Made by a program: the position numbers and the translations under genes. Below, in pieces: positions 9,849-32,647 of a DNA stretch of 38,688 nt. This stretch comes from a virus. Taxonomy: Duplodnaviria; Heunggongvirae; Uroviricota; Caudoviricetes. The stretch lies in the IMG/VR virus record IMGVR_UViG_2703718837_000002, one strand, 5' to 3'. Numbering within the stretch: position 1 is the stretch's first letter; every line of letters begins with the position of its first letter. The notes beneath the pieces were generated by a model. That model worked only from the letters and a program-made list of their open reading frames with translations. It ran no database searches and was not told where the DNA came from.

Positions 9849-10406
9849 ATGAAGGGAAAAACAGCCGCAGGAGGCGGTGCAATTTGCGCTATCGCGATGA
9901 TGATTACCATCGTGATGGGTAATGGCAATGTGCGAACCAACCAGGCGGGGCTTGAGCTTATCGGAAACGCTGAAGGTTGCCGACGTGATCCATACAAGTG
10001 CCCGGCGGGTGTATGGACTGACGGGATCGGTAATACACACGGGGTAACGCCGGGTGTGCGAAAAACAGACCAGCAAATCGCCGCTGATTGGGAAAAGAAT
10101 ATCCTGATCGCTGAACGCTGTATTAATCAGCACTTCCGGGGCAAAGACATGCCCGATAATGCCTTCAGTGCAATGACAAGCGCGGCATTCAATATGGGAT
10201 GCAATAGCTTACGGACCTACTACAGCAAAGCGCGAGGCATGCGAGTAGAAACGTCCATCCACAAGTGGGCGCAGAAAGGGGAATGGGTGAATATGTGTAA
10301 CCATCTCCCTGATTTCGTGAACAGTAACGGCGTCCCCCTGCCCGGGTTAAAGATTCGCCGTGAAAAAGAACGCCAGCTTTGCCTGACGGGGCTGATCAAT
10401 GAATAA
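9849..10406 (+). CDS. lyz: Lyz, SAR-type endolysin (T4-lysozyme family)
   Basis: ATG at 9849 with GAGG 5 nt upstream gives 185 aa. It has an N-terminal weakly hydrophobic signal-anchor-release segment (GGGAICAIAMMITIVMG) and the catalytic-region motif E-x8-D/C-x5-T. Confidence 0.9.
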   Translation: MKGKTAAGGGAICAIAMMITIVMGNGNVRTNQAGLELIGNAEGCRRDPYKCPAGVWTDGIGNTHGVTPGVRKTDQQIAADWEKNILIAERCINQHFRGKDMPDNAFSAMTSAAFNMGCNSLRTYYSKARGMRVETSIHKWAQKGEWVNMCNHLPDFVNSNGVPLPGLKIRREKERQLCLTGLINE

Positions 10407-10650
10407 ACTCCGGCAGCTCCGCCGACTTTCGACAATGAAGTTATCGCTGGCGGCGATAGTTTTCGACTCGATTTTCATGGCGGTATATGTGCTCAATGAG
10501 ACGTGGCCACTGGAACCGCTATTGTATGCCGGGCTTCGGCTGTGCCTGACATTTTTGAGCATGGCTGCGAGATTGATGCAACAGAAAGAAACCGCTTCAG
10601 ATTGTCCACGCCGCGCGGTGCGCAAATATATGGCACGCAGGCGAAGATGA
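10399..10650 (+). CDS. small membrane protein downstream of lyz (lydD/lydE position)
   Basis: The start overlaps the lyz stop. 83 aa with two hydrophobic segments and a basic tail. Exact equivalence to P1 lydD or lydE was not verifiable. Confidence 0.55.
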   Translation: MNKLRQLRRLSTMKLSLAAIVFDSIFMAVYVLNETWPLEPLLYAGLRLCLTFLSMAARLMQQKETASDCPRRAVRKYMARRRR

Positions 10651-10660
10651 TTTAACCATT

Positions 10661-10693
10661 ATTGCTCTAATAAATTTGATTTATTAGAGCAAA
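10661..10693. promoter_or_regulatory. paired inverted C1 operators, left end of immI-like module 1
   Basis: A perfect ATTGCTCTAATAAATTT at 10661-10677, plus an inverted copy. Together they form TTGCTCTAATAAAT-TTG-ATTTATTAGAGCAA, 14-bp perfect arms. Confidence 0.85.
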
Positions 10694-10718
10694 TAACCTA
10701 CCATCGAACACGGCTCTA

Positions 10719-10747
10719 TTGATCTCATCGTCGTTCAGGCTTATAGT
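10719..10747 (+). promoter_or_regulatory. sigma70 promoter candidate for the c4-icd-ant transcript (module 1)
   Basis: TTGATC-N17-TATAGT. Both hexamers and the spacing are conserved in module 2. A GATC lies within the -35 element. Confidence 0.55.
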
Positions 10748-10778
10748 TCCACCGTCGTAGCAAATTCTGCGACCAGGT

Positions 10779-10799
10779 TTGACAGCCTGAATACGAATG
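10779..10799 (+). promoter_or_regulatory. upstream c4-complementary site pair a1/b1 (module 1)
   Basis: TTGACAG-N7-ACGAATG. Both heptamers are exact complements of the c4 loop elements at 10904-10923. Confidence 0.55.
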
Positions 10800-10866
10800 C
10801 GGACAACCGCAGATTTCCGATATTGCGGTATTTTTGTGTCCGTAAACCACGTTACGCCCGAATTAT

Positions 10867-10943
10867 GGTGGGGCGTGATGGGGAGGCTTCGGCCTGCTGG
10901 TTTCATTCGTGCCAGTCTGTCAACCCTGTCACGTCCTGCCACC
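10867..10943 (+). ncRNA. c4: c4 antisense RNA, 77 nt (module 1)
   Basis: 77 nt. A closing stem (GGUGG...CCACC and CGUGA/UCACG), an AGGC-UUCG-GCCU hairpin, and a single-stranded CAUUCGU-GCCAGU-CUGUCAA element complementary to the sites flanking it. The size matches the published 77 nt c4 RNA. Confidence 0.8.
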
Positions 10944-10946
10944 TGT

Positions 10947-10985
10947 TTGACAGCGGGTCGCAGGTTGTTAAACCTACGAATGAGG
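10947..10985 (+). promoter_or_regulatory. c4 target a'/b' overlapping the icd ribosome binding site (module 1)
   Basis: TTGACAG-N22-ACGAATGAGG. The b' element abuts and overlaps the SD GAGG, 8 nt before the icd ATG. Confidence 0.65.
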
Positions 10986-10993
10986 CCGTAACT

Positions 10994-11215
10994 ATGGTTA
11001 ATGCCAATCCTTGCGCACGCCCTGAATTTATCTGGCGCTTTTACTCCTGCCAGAAACGTCACTATCACTTCGTAATTGCACCGACAGAAGATGAGGCCCG
11101 CTCTCTGCTTCCTGACGCTCCCTGCATTTTCTCTGCCCGCTTTTCCACTGATTCGCGCAACTCTCTCAGTTACTGGTGCCTCCCTGTTAACGCTTCTGCT
11201 CAGGAGGGACTATGA
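10994..11215 (+). CDS. icd: Icd-like 73-aa protein (module 1)
   Basis: 73 codons, the published size of P1 icd. Its stop overlaps the ant1 start (ATGA). Conserved in all three modules. Confidence 0.8.
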   Translation: MVNANPCARPEFIWRFYSCQKRHYHFVIAPTEDEARSLLPDAPCIFSARFSTDSRNSLSYWCLPVNASAQEGL

Positions 11216-12303
11216 GAACGTCATTAGTCACCCGTGAAGAAATGATTGAGGCAATTGAACAGCACACATCCTGTATCAGTACCAGGGATATACCGGGTGT
11301 TATTGCCAACTACTTCATGATCACCAAACAACTTTACCGGAGAAAGGACAAGAACGCGGTTCACCGCATTCTGTTGTCTGATATCCGCGAATACCTGCTC
11401 GAACAGGGTCGTCTTGATTATGCAACCGTAACCGCCGAAGCACGCAAGGAGGCACACAGGATGAAAGCAACTAATGTTAAATCAGAAAAAATTACCCTGC
11501 CTTCAGTTCAGGAATCCGAGCTGGTGGTTGTTCAGAATCAGTCTGATGAAATTCCCGTTCTGGAATGGCTGGGAGTGCGTGTCGTAACGACCGAAACTCT
11601 TGCTAGAGGGTATGGTACCGATGAAGCCAATATTCGTAAAAATTTGTCTCGCAACTCCGATCGCTTTGAAGAAGGCAAGCATTACTATCTCTTAACCGGT
11701 TCAAAGTTAAAGGAATTTAAAAGGCTAGTGACTATTAGTCACTTGGTTAGCAAATATACAAGTCAGGTAATTCTCTGGACAGAGCGCGGCGCTGCACGCA
11801 TGTCTAAGATCGTGGACACAAATGAAGCATGGGCATTCTTTGAAAAACTGGAAGACAGCTACTTCCGACAAAAAGAACAGCAACCGGTCTCAATTCCCCA
11901 GACGCTTCCAGAAGCTCTGCGCCTGGCTGCCGAGTTGGCAGAACAGAAAATGCAACTGGAACAACAGCTGGTGGCCGCAGCCCCTAAAGTCGATTTTGCC
12001 GACCGGGTATCAGTGGCTAAGGGGATCCTGATTGGAAATTTTGCAAAGGTTGTTGGACTTAAGCAAAACGCGCTGTTTGCCTGGTTACGGGAGAACGGCA
12101 TCCTGATTGCGTCCGGCGGACGTAAAAATGTACCGTTTCAGCAGTACATAAACGCCGGGTATTTCACGGTGAAAGAAGTGGTGCTGGATGATGAAGATGG
12201 CTACCAGATACGGTTGACGCCCCAGCTAACGGGGAAAGGCCAGCAGTGGCTGACGCGTAAACTGCTCGATGCAGGTTTATTAAAGCCTGTAGCGGCTGAG
12301 TGA
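11212..12303 (+). CDS. ant1: antirepressor Ant1 (363 aa), with in-frame Ant2 starting at 11461
   Basis: An ORF6N/KilA-N-like middle region (VRVVTTETLARGYG...RFEEGKHY) and a KilAC/ANT C-terminal domain. An internal ATG at codon 84 is preceded by AAGGAGG and gives 280 aa, consistent with P1 Ant1 (~42 kDa) and Ant2 (~32 kDa). Confidence 0.85.
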   Translation: MRTSLVTREEMIEAIEQHTSCISTRDIPGVIANYFMITKQLYRRKDKNAVHRILLSDIREYLLEQGRLDYATVTAEARKEAHRMKATNVKSEKITLPSVQESELVVVQNQSDEIPVLEWLGVRVVTTETLARGYGTDEANIRKNLSRNSDRFEEGKHYYLLTGSKLKEFKRLVTISHLVSKYTSQVILWTERGAARMSKIVDTNEAWAFFEKLEDSYFRQKEQQPVSIPQTLPEALRLAAELAEQKMQLEQQLVAAAPKVDFADRVSVAKGILIGNFAKVVGLKQNALFAWLRENGILIASGGRKNVPFQQYINAGYFTVKEVVLDDEDGYQIRLTPQLTGKGQQWLTRKLLDAGLLKPVAAE

Positions 12304-12315
12304 TTAAATTAAAAA

Positions 12316-12333
12316 GGCGGCCTTTCGGCCGCC
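12316..12333 (-). terminator. conserved module-end hairpin, minus-strand terminator
   Basis: GGCGGCC-TTTC-GGCCGCC with a T-run on the minus-strand side. An identical hairpin ends module 2. Confidence 0.5.
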
Positions 12334-12347
12334 AGTGATTTCAGATA

Positions 12348-12373
12348 CCCCGGCAGCCGCCGGGGTTATTTTT
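12348..12373 (+). terminator. intrinsic terminator after ant (module 1)
   Basis: CCCCGGC-AGCC-GCCGGGG followed by TTATTTTT. Confidence 0.6.
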
Positions 12374-12378
12374 GGTGG

Positions 12379-15109
<2,731 letters not shown>

Positions 15110-22710: not shown

Positions 22711-23109
22711 TTAACCCGCGGCTGCAATTAGTGCCGACCCAACCGCCAGTGTGGTGACAAGGCCTATAATGACGACTGTAGCTGTTACCCCACCTGCAAC
22801 AGCTGCTCCAGTCTTTGTTTTGGATAACTCTTTCTTTTCTAGAGAAATGATTTCACCCATAGGAATAGACTGGTTGTTAATACCATTGATATATTGTGGG
22901 GTAACGTTCGATACTGTCATTTCACCTTCGCTACCTGATTTTAACTTGTATTTAATTAGGTCACCAGCATATATCGGTGGCTCTGTTAAATAATAGGTAC
23001 TTCTTTCAAGGTTTTTTTGCTTTATGTTAACTCCTTGATAAGACTGACATCCACATAACACAAGTGATAAAATTAGCGTCATCAGTAAATTTCTTTTATT
23101 TTTTATCAT
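22711..23109 (-). CDS. lipoprotein with a C-terminal Gly/Ala-rich hydrophobic segment
   Basis: ATG at 23109 after AAGGAGAAGGAG. The signal peptide carries a lipobox (LVLCGC). The C-terminal segment is TGAAVAGGVTATVVIIGLVTTLAVGSALIAAAG. The gene is AT-rich relative to its flanks. Confidence 0.75.
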   Translation of the reverse strand: MIKNKRNLLMTLILSLVLCGCQSYQGVNIKQKNLERSTYYLTEPPIYAGDLIKYKLKSGSEGEMTVSNVTPQYINGINNQSIPMGEIISLEKKELSKTKTGAAVAGGVTATVVIIGLVTTLAVGSALIAAAG

Positions 23110-23243
23110 TGTCTGCACTCCTTCTCCTTTTCTTTGTATAGCTAAAACAAATCATTTATTCTTGTCAAATAGTTTTTAGTTTGAGAGTGAGGTTTACGTG
23201 ACGATGCTCTAAAAGTTGCAGATAGCGGTAAAGATAATTTTAT

Positions 23244-24033: not shown

Positions 24034-24066
24034 GTCAGTTGTCAATTATTTCAGATTAAAAATAAT

Positions 24067-24083
24067 ATATTTATTAGTGCATA
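24067..24083 (-). promoter_or_regulatory. variant C1 operator-like site
   Basis: The minus strand reads TATGCACTAATAAATAT. It shares ATGCACTAATAAAT with the site at 28477-28493 upstream of c1. Confidence 0.35.
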
Positions 24084-24144
24084 CAATTAAAACAATAAGT
24101 GTGCACATTGCAACCTCGGAGAGGAAACATTCAACCAGATTGTT

Positions 24145-24161
24145 ATTGCTCTAATAAATTT
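24145..24161 (+). promoter_or_regulatory. C1 operator, left end of immI-like module 2
   Basis: A perfect ATTGCTCTAATAAATTT. The inverted partner seen in module 1 is degenerate here (TTATTGAAACAA). Confidence 0.85.
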
Positions 24162-24202
24162 GATTTATTGAAACAAATAAACTACTATTGGACGCCAGAC
24201 TA

Positions 24203-24231
24203 TTGATCTTCCTGTTGTTCAGGCTTATAGT
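24203..24231 (+). promoter_or_regulatory. sigma70 promoter candidate for c4-icd-ant (module 2)
   Basis: TTGATC-N17-TATAGT, with hexamers identical to module 1. Confidence 0.55.
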
Positions 24232-24262
24232 TCCTACGTCATAGCAAATTCTGCGACCGGGT

Positions 24263-24283
24263 TTAGCAGCCTGAATGTACATG
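24263..24283 (+). promoter_or_regulatory. upstream c4-complementary site pair a1/b1 (module 2)
   Basis: TTAGCAG-N7-GTACATG, exact complements of the c4 elements at 24389-24408. Confidence 0.55.
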
Positions 24284-24351
24284 CGGACAACCGCAGATTT
24301 CCGATATTGCGGTATTTTTATGTCCGTAAAACCGCGTTACGCCCGAATTAT

Positions 24352-24428
24352 GGTGGGGCGTGATGGGGAGGCTTCGGCCTGCTGGTTTCATGTACGCCAG
24401 TCTGCTAACCCCGTCACGTCCTGCCACC
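24352..24428 (+). ncRNA. c4: c4 antisense RNA, 77 nt (module 2, different specificity)
   Basis: The same scaffold as module 1. The recognition elements read CAUGUAC and CUGCUAA instead of CAUUCGU and CUGUCAA. Confidence 0.8.
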
Positions 24429-24431
24429 TGT

Positions 24432-24470
24432 TTAGCAGCGGGTAGCAGGTTGTTAAACCTGTACATGAGG
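24432..24470 (+). promoter_or_regulatory. c4 target a'/b' overlapping the icd ribosome binding site (module 2)
   Basis: TTAGCAG-N22-GTACATGAGG, with the SD GAGG 8 nt before the icd ATG. Confidence 0.65.
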
Positions 24471-24478
24471 CCGTAACT

Positions 24479-24700
24479 ATGGTTAATGCCAATCCTTGCG
24501 CACGCCCTGAATTTATCTGGCGCTTCTATTCTTGTCAAAAACGTCACTATCACTTCGTTATCGCACCAACAGAAGATGAGGCACGTTCTCAGCTTCCGGA
24601 TGCTCCCTGCATTTTCTCCGCCCGCTTTTCTACCGATTCGCGCAATTCTCTCAGTTACTGGTGCCTCCCTGTTAACGCTTCGGCTCAGGAGGGGCTATGA
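24479..24700 (+). CDS. icd: Icd-like 73-aa protein (module 2)
   Basis: 73 codons, differing from the module 1 copy at one residue (L/Q). ATGA overlap with ant1. Confidence 0.8.
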   Translation: MVNANPCARPEFIWRFYSCQKRHYHFVIAPTEDEARSQLPDAPCIFSARFSTDSRNSLSYWCLPVNASAQEGL

Positions 24701-25809
24701 GAACGTCATTAGTCACCCGTGAAGAGATGATCGAGGCAATTGAACAGCACACTGCCTGTATCAGTACCAGGGATATACCAGGTGTTATTGCCAACTACTT
24801 CATGATCACCAAACAACTTTACCGGAGAAAGGACAAGAACGCGGTTCACCGCATTCTGCTAACCGATATCCGTGAATACCTGCTCGAACAGGGTCATCTG
24901 AATTATGCAACCGTCGCAGCCGAAGCACGCAAGGAGGCACACAGAATGAAAGCAACTAACGTTAAATCAGAAAAAATTCATGCACCTTCAGTTCAGGAAT
25001 CAGAGCTGGTGGTTGTTCAGAATCAGCCTGATGAAATTCCCGTTCTGGAATGGCAGGGAGTACGTGTCGTGACAACCGAAACTCTTGCTAGAGGGTATGG
25101 GACCGAAACTAATAACATCAAAGTTAACTATACGCGTAATGCTGATCGCTTTGAGGAAGGTAAACATTACTTTCTACTAACTGGTTCAAAATTAAAAGAA
25201 TTGAAGGACAAGGTTACTCAAAGTAACTTAGTCGCACCGCGAGCAAAGCACCTCACTCTCTGGACGGAACGCGGCGCAGCCCGCCACGCTAAAATGATCG
25301 AAACCGATCAGGCATGGGCATTCTTTGAAAAACTGGAAGACAGCTACTTCCGACAAAAAGAACAGCAACCGGTTGCAATCCCCCAGACGCTTCCAGAAGC
25401 CCTGCGCCTGGCTGCCGAACTGGCTGAACAAAAGCAACTTCTGGAACAGAAAGCCCACCAGCTAAATCAGCAGCTGGTGGCCGCAGCCCCCAAAGTCGAT
25501 TTTGCCGACCGGGTATCAGTGGCCAAGGGGATCCTGATTGGGAATTTTGCAAAGGTTGTTGGACTTAAGCAAAACGCGCTGTTTGCCTGGTTACGGGAGA
25601 ACGGCATCCTGATAGCGTCCGGCGGACGTAAAAATGTGCCGTTCCAGCAATACATCAACGCCGGGTATTTTTCTGTGAAAGAAGTGGTGCTGGATGATGA
25701 AGATGGCTATCAGATACGACTGACGCCCCAGTTAACGGGGAAAGGCCAGCAGTGGTTGACGCGTAAACTGCTCGATGCTGGCTTGTTAAAACCGGTGGCG
25801 GCTGAGTGA
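24697..25809 (+). CDS. ant1: antirepressor Ant1 (370 aa), with in-frame Ant2 starting at 24946
   Basis: The same architecture as module 1. The central ~65 aa are divergent, and there is a 7-aa insertion in the coiled-coil linker. Confidence 0.85.
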   Translation: MRTSLVTREEMIEAIEQHTACISTRDIPGVIANYFMITKQLYRRKDKNAVHRILLTDIREYLLEQGHLNYATVAAEARKEAHRMKATNVKSEKIHAPSVQESELVVVQNQPDEIPVLEWQGVRVVTTETLARGYGTETNNIKVNYTRNADRFEEGKHYFLLTGSKLKELKDKVTQSNLVAPRAKHLTLWTERGAARHAKMIETDQAWAFFEKLEDSYFRQKEQQPVAIPQTLPEALRLAAELAEQKQLLEQKAHQLNQQLVAAAPKVDFADRVSVAKGILIGNFAKVVGLKQNALFAWLRENGILIASGGRKNVPFQQYINAGYFSVKEVVLDDEDGYQIRLTPQLTGKGQQWLTRKLLDAGLLKPVAAE

Positions 25810-25817
25810 TTAAAAAA

Positions 25818-25835
25818 GGCGGCCTTTCGGCCGCC
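25818..25835 (-). terminator. conserved module-end hairpin (module 2)
   Basis: GGCGGCC-TTTC-GGCCGCC with T6 on the minus-strand side. Identical to 12316-12333. Confidence 0.5.
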
Positions 25836-25888
25836 AATGATGTCACGGAGTCTGTAATAGCAATGTCTTTGTAGTTGACTAATTATAT

Positions 25889-27852: not shown

Positions 27853-27886
27853 ATAACTTCGTATAATGTATGCTATACGAAGTTAT
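27853..27886 (+). other. loxP: loxP recombination site
   Basis: An exact ATAACTTCGTATA-ATGTATGC-TATACGAAGTTAT, 34 bp. Confidence 0.99.
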
Positions 27887-27929: not shown

Positions 27930-27946
27930 AGAATTATTAGAGCAAT
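27930..27946 (-). promoter_or_regulatory. C1 operator (immC cluster)
   Basis: The minus strand reads ATTGCTCTAATAATTCT, 15 of 17 matches. Confidence 0.65.
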
Positions 27947-28012
27947 AAATTTTGAGAGAAAAATCCCACTCCACCAGCCAAAAACTGGATTGTTTTTCAT
28001 AGTTGTTTGACA

Positions 28013-28029
28013 ATTGCTCTAATAAATTA
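28013..28029 (+). promoter_or_regulatory. C1 operator overlapping a promoter reading toward coi and c1
   Basis: ATTGCTCTAATAAATTA, 16 of 17 matches. TTGACA lies immediately upstream (28007-28012) and TATAGT at 28028-28033. Confidence 0.8.
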
Positions 28030-28267
28030 TAGTTTTGCCGCCGTTTCGTAATACGACTTTGGATTCACTATTTAATGTGTCTTCAGCGTTGTAGAGCGGC
28101 TCAGAAGGAAATGAGCAAACAGGGAAACCTTATACAACGGCATTACAGCTATGCATTGCTCATCTTACACACAGCGCAATGTTGTTAGATTACCCCAGCA
28201 TGGATCATGGGTGAAACAGTAGGTCAGAGCTTCAGGCTCTGTGTTGTCAATACAGTGAGGCATAATT

Positions 28268-28477
28268 ATGGCTTTCATTCCACCAACCATCGACGACGTT
28301 AGACATTGCTCTAACGCTTTATCTGTAGACCCCGCCGAAACCGACGCTGCCCGCGCCATTGCTGAACACTACTCAAAGATATCCAATCAGGAGTACCGCA
28401 TCACCCAAGACGACCTGGATGATCTCACTGACACAATCGAATATCTCATGGCCACTAACCAGCCAGACTCACAATAA
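28268..28477 (+). CDS. coi: Coi, C1 inactivator
   Basis: 69 aa, the size of P1 Coi. It lies directly upstream of c1 on the same strand, with GAGG 8 nt before the ATG. Confidence 0.85.
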   Translation: MAFIPPTIDDVRHCSNALSVDPAETDAARAIAEHYSKISNQEYRITQDDLDDLTDTIEYLMATNQPDSQ

Positions 28478-28493
28478 ATGCACTAATAAATCT
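28477..28493 (+). promoter_or_regulatory. variant C1 operator upstream of c1
   Basis: AATGCACTAATAAATCT, 14 of 17 matches. Confidence 0.5.
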
Positions 28494-29439: not shown

Positions 29440-29442
29440 ATT

Positions 29443-29465
29443 ATGCCCGGCATCAACCGGGCATT
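29443..29465. terminator. bidirectional hairpin between convergent c1 and ant (module 3)
   Basis: TGCCCGG-N6-CCGGGCA, T-rich on both sides. It sits 3 nt after the c1 stop and 7 nt after the ant stop. Confidence 0.6.
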
Positions 29466-29471
29466 CTTCCA

Positions 29472-30584
29472 TTATTCAGCCGCCACCGGTTTTAACAAGC
29501 CAGCATCGAGCAGTTTACGCGTCAACCACTGCTGGCCTTTACCCGTTAATTGGGGCGTCAGCCGTATCTGGTAGCCATTTTCATCATCCAGCACCACTTC
29601 TTTCACCGTGAAATACCCCGCGTTGATGTACTGCTGGAACGGCACATTTTTACGTCCACCGGACGCTATCAGGATGCCGTTCTCCCGTAACCAGACAAAC
29701 AGCGCGTTTTGCTTAAGTCCAACAACCTTTGCAAAATTCCCAATCAGGATCCCTTTAGCTACTGATACCCGGTCGGCAAAATCGACTTTAGGAGCGGCGG
29801 CCACCAGCTGCTGATTTAGCTGGTGGGCTTTCTGTTCCAGAAGTTGCTTTTGTTCAGCCAGCTCGGCAGCCAGACGCAGGGCTTCTGGAAGCGTCTGGGG
29901 GATTGCGATCGGTTGCTGTTCTTTTTGTCGGAAGTAGTTGTCTTCCAGTTTTTCAAAGAATGCCCATGCTTCATTTGTGTCCACGATCTTAGACATGCGT
30001 GCAGCGCCGCGCTCTGTCCAGAGTGTAAGGCTTCTGGCGTTCTTACCAACAGAGTAACTTCCGGTTACTCTGTTCTTAAATTCTCTTAATTTTAAACCAG
30101 TTAGAAGAAAGTAATGCTTACCTTCTTCAAAGCGGTCAAGGTTGCGAGACAAATTGTTGCGAATATTGGCTTCATCGACCCCATACCCTCTAGCAAGAGT
30201 TTCGGTTGTCACGACACGTACTCCCTGCCATTCCAGAACGGGAATTTCATCCGGCTGATTCTGAACAACCACCAGCTCTGATTCCTGAACTGAAGGTGCA
30301 TAAATTTTTTCTGATTTAACGTTAGTTGCTTTCATTCTGTGTGCCTCCTTGCGTGCTTCGGCTGCGACGGTTGCGTAATTCAGATGACCCTGTTCGAGCA
30401 GGTATTCACGGATATCGGTTAGCAGAATGCGGTGAACCGCGTGTTTGTCCTTTCTCCGGTAAAGTTGTTTGGTGATCATGAAGTAGTTGGCAATAACGCC
30501 CGGTATATCCTTGGTACTGATACAGGCAGTGTGCTGTTCAATTGCCTCGATCATCTCTTCACGGGTGACTAATGACGTTCTCAT
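29472..30584 (-). CDS. ant1: antirepressor Ant1 (370 aa), with in-frame Ant2 starting at 30335 (module 3)
   Basis: The same architecture as modules 1 and 2. A third variant of the central region. AAGGAGG precedes the internal ATG. Confidence 0.85.
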   Translation of the reverse strand: MRTSLVTREEMIEAIEQHTACISTKDIPGVIANYFMITKQLYRRKDKHAVHRILLTDIREYLLEQGHLNYATVAAEARKEAHRMKATNVKSEKIYAPSVQESELVVVQNQPDEIPVLEWQGVRVVTTETLARGYGVDEANIRNNLSRNLDRFEEGKHYFLLTGLKLREFKNRVTGSYSVGKNARSLTLWTERGAARMSKIVDTNEAWAFFEKLEDNYFRQKEQQPIAIPQTLPEALRLAAELAEQKQLLEQKAHQLNQQLVAAAPKVDFADRVSVAKGILIGNFAKVVGLKQNALFVWLRENGILIASGGRKNVPFQQYINAGYFTVKEVVLDDENGYQIRLTPQLTGKGQQWLTRKLLDAGLLKPVAAE

Positions 30585-30802
30585 AGTCCCTCCTGAGCAG
30601 AAGCGTTAACAGGGAGGCACCAGTAACTGAGAGAGTTGCGCGAATCAGTGGAAAAGCGGGCAGAGAAAATGCAGGGAGCGTCAGGAAGCTGAGAACGGGC
30701 CTCATCTTCTGTCGGTGCAATAACGAAGTGATAGTGACGTTTCTGGCAGGAATAGAAGCGCCAGATGAATTCAGGATGAGTTGGGGTAGGGACAGTAGCC
30801 AT
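30581..30802 (-). CDS. icd: Icd-like 73-aa protein (module 3, variant N-terminus)
   Basis: 73 codons. The first 9 residues differ (MATVPTPTH versus MVNANPCAR) and the rest is essentially identical. ATGA overlap with ant1. Confidence 0.75.
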   Translation of the reverse strand: MATVPTPTHPEFIWRFYSCQKRHYHFVIAPTEDEARSQLPDAPCIFSARFSTDSRNSLSYWCLPVNASAQEGL

Positions 30803-30810
30803 AATGGCAG

Positions 30811-30852
30811 CCTCCTTTGACTAAGTTAAGGAGCTACCGCGTGAGGTCTCAA
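30811..30852 (-). promoter_or_regulatory. target a'/b' overlapping the icd ribosome binding site (module 3)
   Basis: The minus strand reads TTGAGAC-N24-GTCAAAGGAGG. Both elements complement the loop of the RNA at 30860-30938. The SD GGAGG is included. Confidence 0.6.
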
Positions 30853-30859
30853 TCTCAAT

Positions 30860-30938
30860 GGCGGTAGCACTGACTGGGTTGAGACTACCGGCGTCAAAGG
30901 GAACCGGCCTGCCTTTCGGCAGCCCAGCCAGCACTACC
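30860..30938 (-). ncRNA. c4-analogous antisense RNA on an unrelated scaffold (module 3)
   Basis: About 76-79 nt. A 13-bp closing stem (GGUAGUGCUGGCU / AGUCAGUGCUACC, including G-U pairs), a CUGCC-GAAA-GGCAG hairpin, and the single-stranded elements CCCUUUGAC and GUCUCAA. Confidence 0.65.
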
Positions 30939-30985
30939 ATTGATTTCGGAGCTAAACGCTACGTATGGCTGTGCGATGGCATGAC

Positions 30986-31011
30986 ACAAAAAAAAGACGC
31001 TTTCGGCGTCT
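30986..31011 (-). terminator. intrinsic terminator inside the module 3 leader, between the decoy site and the RNA gene
   Basis: The minus strand reads AGACGC-CGAAA-GCGTCT followed by T8. Confidence 0.55.
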
Positions 31012-31017
31012 GTGTCG

Positions 31018-31042
31018 CCTTTGACATTATTCGGGGTCTCAA
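31018..31042 (-). promoter_or_regulatory. upstream complementary site pair a1/b1 (module 3)
   Basis: The minus strand reads TTGAGAC-N10-GTCAAAGG. Confidence 0.5.
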
Positions 31043-31142
31043 TCCCGGCACCCGTTTTAATGAGGTGCCTGATAAGCATAAACCGAAAATGCCTCAAGGC
31101 GCAAGAGGTCAGGTTCAATGTAACATCGGCAGTTAAAAAACA

Positions 31143-31159
31143 CAATTTATTAGAGCAAA
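31143..31159 (-). promoter_or_regulatory. C1 operator, start of module 3, abutting the pacB stop
   Basis: The minus strand reads TTTGCTCTAATAAATTG, 15 of 17 matches. Confidence 0.7.
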
Positions 31160-31162
31160 TAT

Positions 31163-32647
31163 TCATTCATTAAGCCATGCCAGAGCTTCATCAACCTGCG
31201 CTTCGTCTTCGACGCTAAGCACTTCATCCTGGGGAACATAATCCGCCAGCATAGCGAAACAATATGTATCCCAATGGTCTGGTGAGTGCAGGTTGAGTTT
31301 TTTCTTCATATCCTCCTTACTCATCACCTTCCATTGACCTGCGGAGTTAATCCCTACAGGGATTTTCGACGCTTCCTCAATAGTTTCATTACCCTTATCC
31401 AGTCTCATACGACCAGATTTTACGGCCTCTGCGGCTTGAACGTTGGCATAAGCACGTTTATCAAAGTACAGGCTCTTATCTTCACGGCTATGCATCTTTT
31501 TACCCCAGCGTATGCGCTGTACGGTAATACCATAATACTCGTACATCAGATCCGCCGTTGCTTTACCCAGGCCATCGCCGTCTATCGCTATGGTGATATT
31601 TGGGAATCGCTCAGGATTACATTCTGCGAAAATTTTGGCGGCAAGCTGCGTTTCTGTAACGTCTGTGTATTCCAGCATTCGATAGTTGATTACACGGCGT
31701 TTATTTCGCTGGCCGGACACCATCATGATATTGATAACGGACTTATCCCGTCCCGTACCACCAGCAACGTCCACACATGCAAGCCAGCCCCATCCTTTTG
31801 CAATCTTGACTTTCCGCCGCGTTGCACGTTCAACCTCATCACGTCCAAGAAGGAAGCCATCCTGTGATTTAGGGAATAGGCCGCGTACCTTAATCATGTA
31901 CATAGGGTTATCACGCCCGCCGTACTCCGCCAGCTTCATTTTGATAAATGCTGGCGTTACCAACGGTGATTCCTCACTGTTAAGCGTGATCGCCGTATAA
32001 ACGCCATCAGGGTTACCAGGACGCTTGGCCAGTTTATGGTGTGTATCGTAGAAATAGCCGCTTGGGCGTGTAGGCTGTGACAGCAATAAGATGCGGTTAT
32101 CCTGTCCGGTAAGAGCACCGGTGATGATACCGAAAGCTCTATCACTGACACCGGAGGCTTCATCGATAATATACAGAAGATGATCTGCGTGTTCACCGGC
32201 GAGAGCTTCTTCACTTCCCAGACGAAAGCCCTTCGGTACTACAGTCCATACACCTTTACCAGTAACCTCATAGAAAGCGGTTTCTGTCAGAACAAAATAA
32301 TCAGCAAGCCATGGAAAACGGCTGGTGGCAGTAGCCCAGTTTATCTTGATGTACTTGAATATACCGGTCATTACCTGCTGAATTTTGTTCGCAACGATAA
32401 TGGCGCGGGCACCGGGATACATGATTATGAACAACATGATCATGATAGAAGTCATGTCTGATTTCCCGGTACCGTGACCAGACGAAACAGATGTCTTGCT
32501 ACCCTGTTCCTGCACAGACTCAATAATCAGATCCTGCTGCCAGGTAGGTGTTTTGCCGAACAAAACATCAGCGGCCGCAATCCAGTCATAACGATATAGC
32601 GCCACCAGCTCGCGCCAACGTGGGTCCGTTACGCAACTTCTGGCCAT
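31163..32647 (-). CDS. pacB: PacB, terminase large subunit
   Basis: 494 aa with Walker A-like SSGHGTGKS and a terminase-type nuclease C-terminal half. The start overlaps the pacA stop. Confidence 0.9.

Follow-up and report, generated by a model that had tools for sequence, protein, structure and literature searches.

Predicted immI-type antirepressor operons at three non-canonical positions of a P1-like phage-plasmid form discrete operator-to-hairpin units

The 38.7-kb (38,688-nucleotide, nt) stretch of the IMG/VR virus record IMGVR_UViG_2703718837_000002, hereafter the window, is a segment of a P1-like phage-plasmid, and sequence comparison identifies in it three paralogous immI-type antirepressor operons, all at non-canonical positions. 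Each forms a discrete unit that runs from a C1 operator on one side to a GC hairpin on the other, and these sharp edges are real and general. An earlier note on this DNA had described the same cassette-like units, correctly, and had proposed that they move by recombination at operator sequences; empty sites in related genomes do not support that mechanism. Instead, we favor, with a probability of roughly 0.72, a reading in which the extra immI copies are moron-like autonomous units that would have been placed by rare illegitimate recombination and then reshuffled by homologous recombination. The element is of a known kind; the analysis of its edges, the provenance of its hairpins, and the distinctness of the c4 types within a genome add detail and define no new kind of system.

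Anatomy and edges of the three modules

Module 1 (M1, 10657-12346) and module 2 (M2, 24083-25835) are encoded on the plus strand, at the lydD|pro site and in the ref locus between mat and c8, respectively, while module 3 (M3, 29440-31162) is encoded on the minus strand at the pacB|c1 site. Their parts follow the same order, namely the C1 operator/promoter, the a1/b1 targets, the c4 antisense RNA, the a2/b2 targets, icd, ant, and the GC hairpin, and the annotated P1 immI operon aligns collinearly with M1 and M2 over the whole stretch that begins at Oc4 (Op51) and closes with the stop codon of ant. One of the closest relatives of the window, the complete E. albertii plasmid pEA50_2 (NZ_CP117572.1; 99.2% identity over window positions 10000-13000), holds four units, these three and a canonical copy between sim and kilA (76032-77293).

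In M1, the C1 operator (10661-10693, plus strand) aligns with P1 Oc4 as the homologue of Op51/Oc4. The operator sequence ATTGCTCTAATAAATTT is exact at 10661-10677, and an inverted copy with three mismatches at 10677-10693 renders the site palindromic and bivalent. The same sequence is exact at 24145-24161 in M2 and carries two mismatches at 31143-31159 (minus strand) in M3. The near-perfect palindrome of M1 resembles some other bivalent P1 operators; the second half-site of M2 (24145-24176) has degenerated (TTGAAACAA) and is kept in other ref-locus alleles. Downstream of the M1 operator, a promoter scan predicted a sigma-70-like promoter (TTGATC-17-TATAGT, 10719-10747, plus strand) that aligns with the annotated P1c4 promoter of P1 (P51b/P1c4 homologue). 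The adjoining a1/b1 targets of the C4 RNA (10741-10793; a1 TTGACAG, b1 ACGAATG; Rfam RF03163, 57.1 bits) are complementary to the loops of the c4 antisense RNA gene (10861-10946; b′ CATTCGT, a′ CTGTCAA; RF01695, 69.8 bits), and the a2/b2 targets (10947-10985), aligned to the annotated a2/b2 of P1, repeat the a1/b1 sequences and place b2 over the icd Shine-Dalgarno sequence. The stop codon of icd (10994-11215, 73 amino acids, aa) overlaps the start of ant (11212-12303, 363 aa) in an ATGA at 11212-11215, and the ant product, which matches P1 ant1/ant2, contains ORF6N (PF10543, 9e-18) and KilAC (PF03374, 3e-32) domains.

The corresponding parts of M2, all on the plus strand, are the operator at 24145-24161, a predicted promoter at 24203-24231, a1b1 at 24225-24277, c4 at 24346-24431, icd at 24479-24700, and ant at 24697-25809, so that the module from operator to ant stop (24145-25809) stands inverted in place of P1 ref. 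On the minus strand, M3 (29472-31162 from ant to its left edge) comprises ant at 29472-30584, icd at 30581-30802, c4 at 30857-30944, an isrK-like leader at 30990-31068, and the operator at 31143-31159. The C4 RNA was thus found three times (RF01695: 69.8, 70.8, and 75.4 bits; gathering score 45); the Rfam c4-a1b1 motif is present in M1 and M2, and the isrK-like leader in M3 only. Both c4 and a1b1 RNAs are curated Rfam families. In M3, inspection of the sequence gives the target-loop pairs TTGAGAC/GTCTCAA and GTCAAAGG/CCTTTGAC. All three icd/ant pairs are intact, with an icd of 73 aa, an ATGA overlap, and an Ant of 363-370 aa that carries both PF03374 and PF10543. Icd has no Pfam model, and its homologues are annotated as 'host cell division inhibitor Icd-like protein'. 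The M3 leader (isrK match, 59.8 bits) contains a terminator-like hairpin at 30995-31011. An 'ash family protein' that PGAP annotates in the M3-type leader of related plasmids may be spurious, since the 90-aa open reading frame (ORF) in question (30894-31166, minus strand) has no Pfam hit and overlaps c4.

In P1, pairing of the c4 RNA with a2/b2 reportedly blocks translation of icd and hence of ant, and Ant is said to inactivate C1. By analogy, each unit is most likely an autonomous operon that would be repressed by C1, attenuated by c4, and code for an antirepressor.

The edges of the modules agree with the earlier description. Similarity between M1 and M2 was said to begin within a few bases of the operator, and the ungapped repeats indeed start at 10659/24143, with a weak gapped extension to about 10652/24133, i.e. 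2-9 nt upstream of the operator. On the right, the similarity ends at 12343/25845, 10 nt past the identical hairpin GGCGGCC-TTTC-GGCCGCC, whose positions (12316-12333 and 25818-25835) were given correctly. The description of M3 holds as well: an operator, located 4 nt past the stop codon of pacB, opens the module, and a hairpin of another sequence (29443-29464) closes it. The reported lack of flanking direct repeats, transposase, and integrase was likewise confirmed: no bracketing repeat of at least 8 nt was found around any module, and a search for target-site duplications around the modules was negative, yielding only a TGATTT 6-mer at 10648 and 12336 that is absent from the empty site. No transposase ORF lies inside or adjoining the modules and the module ends are unrelated in sequence, unlike those of a transposable element. 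The sole recombinase in the window is P1's own Cre, and a search for lox sites recovered a single loxP in its normal place (27853-27886) and nothing lox-like at the module edges.

In support of the generality of these edges, identity across six contexts among IMG/VR loci is 33% in the 20 nt that precede the operator, as compared with 92% in the 17-nt operator itself, and flank similarity after hairpin B, the hairpin that ends M3, extends only 1-7 nt between contexts. On the reading that we favor, similarity stops at the operator and the hairpin since no functional element of the unit lies farther out, and the sequence beyond them represents unrelated insertion contexts.

Insertion contexts, empty sites, and exchange among copies

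IMG/VR loci encoding Ant relatives were classified by their flanks (79 loci), and a scan of genome contigs with Ant, in a collection with one genome per species, returned only a few P1-like loci. Among the IMG/VR loci, at least six backbone contexts harbor the unit, with alike edges in all of them: pacB|c1 (about 50 loci), mat|c8 with ref replaced (14 loci), between the dbn-side gene and the next convergent gene (5 loci), the res-mod slot after mat (4 loci), the canonical sim|kilA position (3 loci), and lydD|pro (2 loci). Occupancy of the M1, M2, and M3 sites among matching PLSDB records is 11/780, 56/826, and 259/804, respectively, the lydD|pro copy being rare. Two of the contexts were already noted by Venturini et al. 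2019 (PMC6906374) in connection with pTZ20_1P, RCS47, and pSvP1, namely an ant insertion between pacB and c1, which is the context of M3, and, for the res-mod region, homologues of icd-ant; that paper's passages on these insertions do not describe the edges at operator and hairpin, the sites at lydD|pro and on the dbn side, the replacement of ref, or c4 typing. In the four res-mod loci (L030, L042, L053, and L061, about 1990-2440), approximately 580 nt separate mat from the module operator, and this stretch contains a small ORF on the opposite strand that starts with a lipoprotein-like signal sequence (MKLGNLLAAAIVLTITACAG...).

The comparison with empty sites that the earlier note proposed was made with relatives that share the same site, and it defined the junctions at lydD|pro (empty in P1 and NZ_CP062890.1), pacB|c1 (empty in P1), and the dbn side (empty in pEA50_2). 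The empty lydD|pro site reads ...GGCGAAGG(C/T)GATAATAGTTAACGAGAA|CCCCGGCAGC..., and in the window the module stands between TTAAC and CCCCGG. The M1 junctions are identical in the window, NZ_CP027575.1, and pEA50_2, which indicates one event. At pacB|c1, a 24-nt spacer separates the two stop codons in P1, and M3 replaces this spacer exactly from stop codon to stop codon, with both stops re-created. On the dbn side, the empty site in pEA50_2 is a 57-nt spacer with a terminator; in occupied loci, a 47-nt filler, the unit, and a 50-nt filler replace this resident terminator spacer.

M2 occupies the place of the recombination-enhancement gene ref (24083-25817), which is absent from the window genome, in reversed orientation. 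The ref ORF has been replaced exactly between two retained elements, the resident operator Omat and the resident hairpin. Omat is intact (24064-24082, no strand assigned) and overlaps the former ref stop codon, and homology to P1 ends exactly there (alignment with P1 2560-2760). A 62-nt filler (24083-24144, plus strand), conserved in all loci of the ref-locus context, separates Omat from the M2 operator. A hybrid operator junction, as would be left by recombination between operators, was not found at M2, where Omat and the operator of the module are each preserved whole, at a distance of 62 nt and in opposite orientations.

These sites bear directly on the proposed movement by recombination at operators. 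The premise that operators are scattered through P1-type genomes holds well, as the window contains 12 operator-like sites (at most three mismatches) against 0.22 expected. The mechanism does not follow from it: the empty lydD|pro, pacB|c1, and dbn-side sites carry no operator-like sequence, and the best operator matches there have 7-9 mismatches over 17 positions, the same as in shuffled sequence.

The hairpin at M1 and M2 (hairpin A; 12316-12333 and 25818-25835, minus strand) had been called conserved, and here the earlier account needs a correction: the hairpin does not belong to the module intrinsically, as it also occurs upstream of ref in eight module-free loci. In P1 and the seven others, GGCGGCC-TAAT-GGCCGCC followed by AATGATGTCA lies directly upstream of the ref ATG, with its T-run toward ref. 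Genomes of the ref-locus context keep the same hairpin and flank, the flank being homologous to P1 from 25836 in the window, and ant adjoins the A-run. Hairpin A is therefore resident at this locus, as a predicted terminator on the cre-c8 side, and what M2 displaced is exactly the ref ORF next to it. At M1, hairpin A and the following 14 nt (12334-12347, AGTGATTTCAGATA), which match a flank variant of the ref-locus context (AATGATTTCAAGAA) at 11 of 14 positions, are inserted ahead of the resident lydD/pro intergenic terminator (CCCCGGCAGCCGCCGGGG + TTATTTTT, 12347-12366, plus strand), which a terminator scan detected and which belongs to the backbone, being present in the empty sites of P1 and NZ_CP062890.1. 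The right end of M1 was thus copied from an arrangement of the ref-locus type. A copy of all of M1 from an M2-type locus was considered and rejected, since the right end alone fits, while the leader resembles the dbn-side lineage.

Hairpin B (ATGCCCGG-TTGA-CCGGGCAT + AATTTATT, 29443-29464, minus strand) is the predicted sense-strand terminator of M3. It is also found in the pacB|c1, res-mod, and dbn-side contexts and in one further locus (L048), with flanks that diverge 1-7 nt after it. The possibility that it is the resident c1 terminator was rejected, as it accompanies the module in four contexts. Sense-strand transcription of M1 and M2 is predicted to end at the resident terminator that comes next, with hairpin A oriented antisense. 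An intrinsic-terminator score was obtained only on the strand antisense to ant (tails TTTTTAATTT and TTTTTTAATC; minus strand only at M1), which agrees with the suggestion that the end hairpin acts against incoming antisense transcription, a function that remains predicted. The canonical P1 hairpin also has a long T-run on the antisense strand and faces the annotated PaskilA promoter.

Two further observations concern hairpin A. In P1 (NC_005856, 2046-2071, corresponding to 25810-25835 in the window), the hairpin with a T8 run lies between the predicted -10 element of P1ref (2039-2044) and the ref ATG (2077), such that transcripts from upstream (cre-c8/P2ref) are predicted to end before ref, whereas P1ref transcripts would start inside the hairpin, a possible attenuator; it is not marked as a terminator among the GenBank features inspected. 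In one locus (L022), the resident terminator has been removed by a deletion, such that hairpin A, complete to its 3′ base, runs directly into the final ~80 nt of a TnpB-type insertion sequence (IS). In some plasmids, e.g. NZ_AP027471.1, a TnpB-type IS of the IS200/IS605 family stands directly after the resident lydD/pro terminator.

Pairwise identity among M1, M2, and M3 is mosaic. In the loci compared, each insertion site has a leader haplotype of its own, read from the operator to the -35 element; c4 specificity types, in contrast, are mixed across the sites, and one and the same type occurs at several of them. Site-linked leaders combined with shuffled c4 types indicate exchange inside the unit, downstream of the operator. 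One IMG/VR genome contains two loci (L035 and L097) in which the dbn-side and pacB|c1 contexts have been joined reciprocally into chimeras, which implies an inversion. The c4 code was read in the window at 10741-10985, 24225-24470, and 30810-31070 and in loci L021-L099. The a1/b1, a′/b′, and a2/b2 sequences covary perfectly in 13 of 13 T1-scaffold modules, among them M1 and M2, and in 12 multi-module genomes no two co-resident modules have an a′/b′ pair in common. On the P1-like scaffold, two a-types (TTGACAG/CTGTCAA and TTAGCAG/CTGCTAA) combine with at least five b-types in a combinatorial loop code; the isrK-like scaffold adds five further c4 types. In all, 12 c4 loop types were recognized.

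Placement of the units and competing explanations

According to the reading that we favor, a few rare events of illegitimate recombination would have put the unit into 'safe' spacers where convergent genes have their 3′ ends (lydD|pro, pacB|c1, the dbn side, and the res-mod slot after mat) or exchanged it for ref. The survivors would be those junctions that leave the unit and the neighboring genes and terminators intact, and the insertions would then have spread via homologous recombination in the conserved flanks. Within the unit, segments of ant and of c4 specificity pass from copy to copy, whether through homologous recombination or through gene conversion, and the copied hairpin at M1 would stop minus-strand transcription from the pro/prt side that runs antisense into ant. 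An origin through an RNA intermediate, i.e. as a retro-copy, was ruled out, for the unit includes its own promoter and an operator upstream of the transcript start.

Several points weigh against this reading. Fillers of 47 to ~580 nt lie between the backbone and the operator in three contexts (the ref locus, the res-mod slot, and the dbn side), and the donor junctions there are thus not readable. Nor was any donor-recipient-product triplet reconstructed in which microhomology was unambiguous. The left end of M1 resembles the M2 filler only weakly (ATTTAACCA versus ATTCAACCA), and the M1 leader is closer to the dbn-side lineage. In addition, the edges are tighter than random breakpoints predict, since in several contexts the sequence becomes unrelated within 0-2 nt of the operator on one side and within 1-7 nt of hairpin B on the other. 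Selection accounts for such tightness only if longer donor flanks are harmful; one possibly harmful flank is the divergent PsimA promoter, located 5 nt from Oc4 in P1. Finally, wherever function is claimed, the promoter and terminator calls behind it are consensus matches.

Tight edges of this kind are what would be expected if C1-bound operators and GC hairpins stalled replication or were cleaved, for example by SbcCD, so that illegitimate joints formed at the unit edges and the unit behaved as a quasi-mobile cassette without a recombinase of its own. The secondary deletion in L022, which ends exactly at the 3′ base of hairpin A where it meets the right end of the TnpB-type IS, fits such a process as well. 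However, only about five independent events are available to judge from, selection for intact units and neighbors gives the same pattern, and diversity at the ref locus is raised broadly (approximately ±50 nt) and not sharply at the edge; for the latter reason we also rejected hypervariability at the operator edge of the ref-locus context as a sign of edge targeting. We therefore regard this explanation as unlikely, if the strongest of the mechanistic rivals. Homologous recombination between scattered 17-bp C1 operators, with the hairpin as the right-hand site, appears less probable still. Each module does begin at one of the window's operator-like sites, the left junction of the M2 replacement abuts Omat, and the presence of hairpin A in both ref-containing and module-containing versions makes a right-side crossover there possible. 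Yet, apart from the three empty sites and the two intact operators at M2, the leader haplotypes that directly follow the operator depend on the site and not on the c4 type, placing crossovers deeper in the module, and the remaining window operators (9699, 15230, 27930-28493, and 34450) sit in conserved backbone. The idea itself is that of a 'boundary sequence' model for lambdoid phages, reportedly put forward for HK620, in which short conserved border sequences guide module recombination; unlike in that model, the recipient sites compared here lack the proposed boundary sequence.

Mobilization in trans, by an IS200/IS605-type TnpA acting on the hairpin ends or by Cre or Cin, is in our view highly improbable. 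Elements of the IS200/IS605 family rely on subterminal hairpins and leave no target duplications on insertion, a TnpB-type IS adjoins the lydD|pro site in other plasmids, and Cre is encoded between M2 and M3. Nevertheless, that IS sits elsewhere, after the resident terminator, and no TnpA gene was seen; the left end of M3 is no palindrome, the three hairpin types are unrelated in sequence, and the single loxP has no lox-like counterpart at the module ends. Neither cleavage motifs at a fixed distance from both ends nor excised circular or single-stranded intermediates were found.

A different proposal, possible and held here only tentatively, concerns the purpose of the copies, with up to four mutually orthogonal c4-icd-ant units stockpiled as an immunity arms-race kit whose edges are preferred breakpoints. 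On the side of the prophage, each extra c4 type would silence the antirepressor of one more superinfecting class; on the side of the invader, an Ant of a c4 type missing in the resident would escape repression and inactivate the shared C1, and operator/hairpin edges acting as preferred breakpoints would let the kit grow. The 12 c4 loop types, the absence of a shared type within a genome, and the tight edges in six contexts are hints in this direction.

Genomic setting, related systems, and implications

The window is 95-99% identical to hundreds of Escherichia/Salmonella P1-type plasmids, and one IMG/VR contig, whose Ant protein is 100% identical, is also among its closest relatives. By comparison with annotated relatives and P1, the plus-strand gene order begins with ssb (minus strand), lyz, lydD, M1, pro and prt (both minus), darB, ulx, and lxc, continues with two small ORFs, mat (minus), M2, c8, cre, and cra (all minus), loxP, coi, and c1, and ends with M3, pacB, and pacA (all minus). 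The darB gene between lxc and prt is missing in pEA50_2. The P1 res-mod (EcoPI) slot, between lxc and mat, here holds only a small ORF of 135 aa (22711-23118, minus strand), and in relatives it carries SIR2, type III restriction-modification, or EAL/HTH genes, or an extra c4-icd-ant module.

The closest known system is the immI operon of P1/P7. The modules share with it the order of parts and the antisense T-run of the terminal hairpin, and the leader and c4 region of M1 and M2 is 63-100% identical to that of P1. In contrast to immI at its canonical place between sim and kilA-repL, the units described here stand at lydD|pro, the ref locus (mat|c8), and pacB|c1, and several copies are present per genome. 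The b′ loops are also different (ACGAATG and GTACATG here, as opposed to GTTAGTG in P1), as are the terminal hairpins (A and B, as opposed to CCTGCCAG-CAAA-CTGGCAGG in P1), and in its central part Ant aligns with its P1 counterpart at no more than 20-50% identity. The leader of M3, which precedes a c4-like RNA and an antirepressor, was likened by its Rfam model to the isrK-anrP antirepressor locus of Salmonella Gifsy-type prophages (RF01394, 59.8 bits); here it resides in a P1 backbone under a C1 operator.

Morons of temperate phages (the Hendrix/Juhala concept) are defined as transcription units that stand by themselves, each equipped with a promoter and a terminator (PMC3594210). Similarly, the modules have a predicted promoter and terminator of their own, are present or absent between collinear relatives, and sit between genes. 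They depart from typical morons in their base composition, since the modules' GC content (0.482-0.492) equals that of the window (0.487), which suggests an origin within the P1 family. They also differ in cargo, a paralogue of the phage's own immunity module and not a host-benefit gene, and in being repressor-controlled, unlike a unit built for expression from a repressed prophage.

Taken together with the empty sites, the three units offer a worked example of a phage-plasmid regulatory module duplicated into safe intergenic spots, in which a real edge pattern could be separated from an appealing yet unsupported mechanism, namely operators as recombination sites. The copies also have consequences for the plasmids that carry them. 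M2 and M3 form inverted repeats that are 92-96% identical (24506-25820 versus 29461-30775) and bracket c8-cre-cra-loxP-coi-c1, and M1 and M2 form direct repeats (10659-12343 versus 24143-25845) that bracket pro-prt-darB-ulx-lxc-mat. Through these repeats of 1.3-1.7 kb, the c8-cre-lox-c1 segment can be inverted and pro-prt-darB deleted, and the reciprocal chimeras L035/L097 show that rearrangements of this kind occur. The assembly and typing of P1-like plasmids have to take this into account. Moreover, the c4 'barcodes' would allow a simple sequence-based prediction of immunity groups among the numerous P1-like plasmids with resistance genes.

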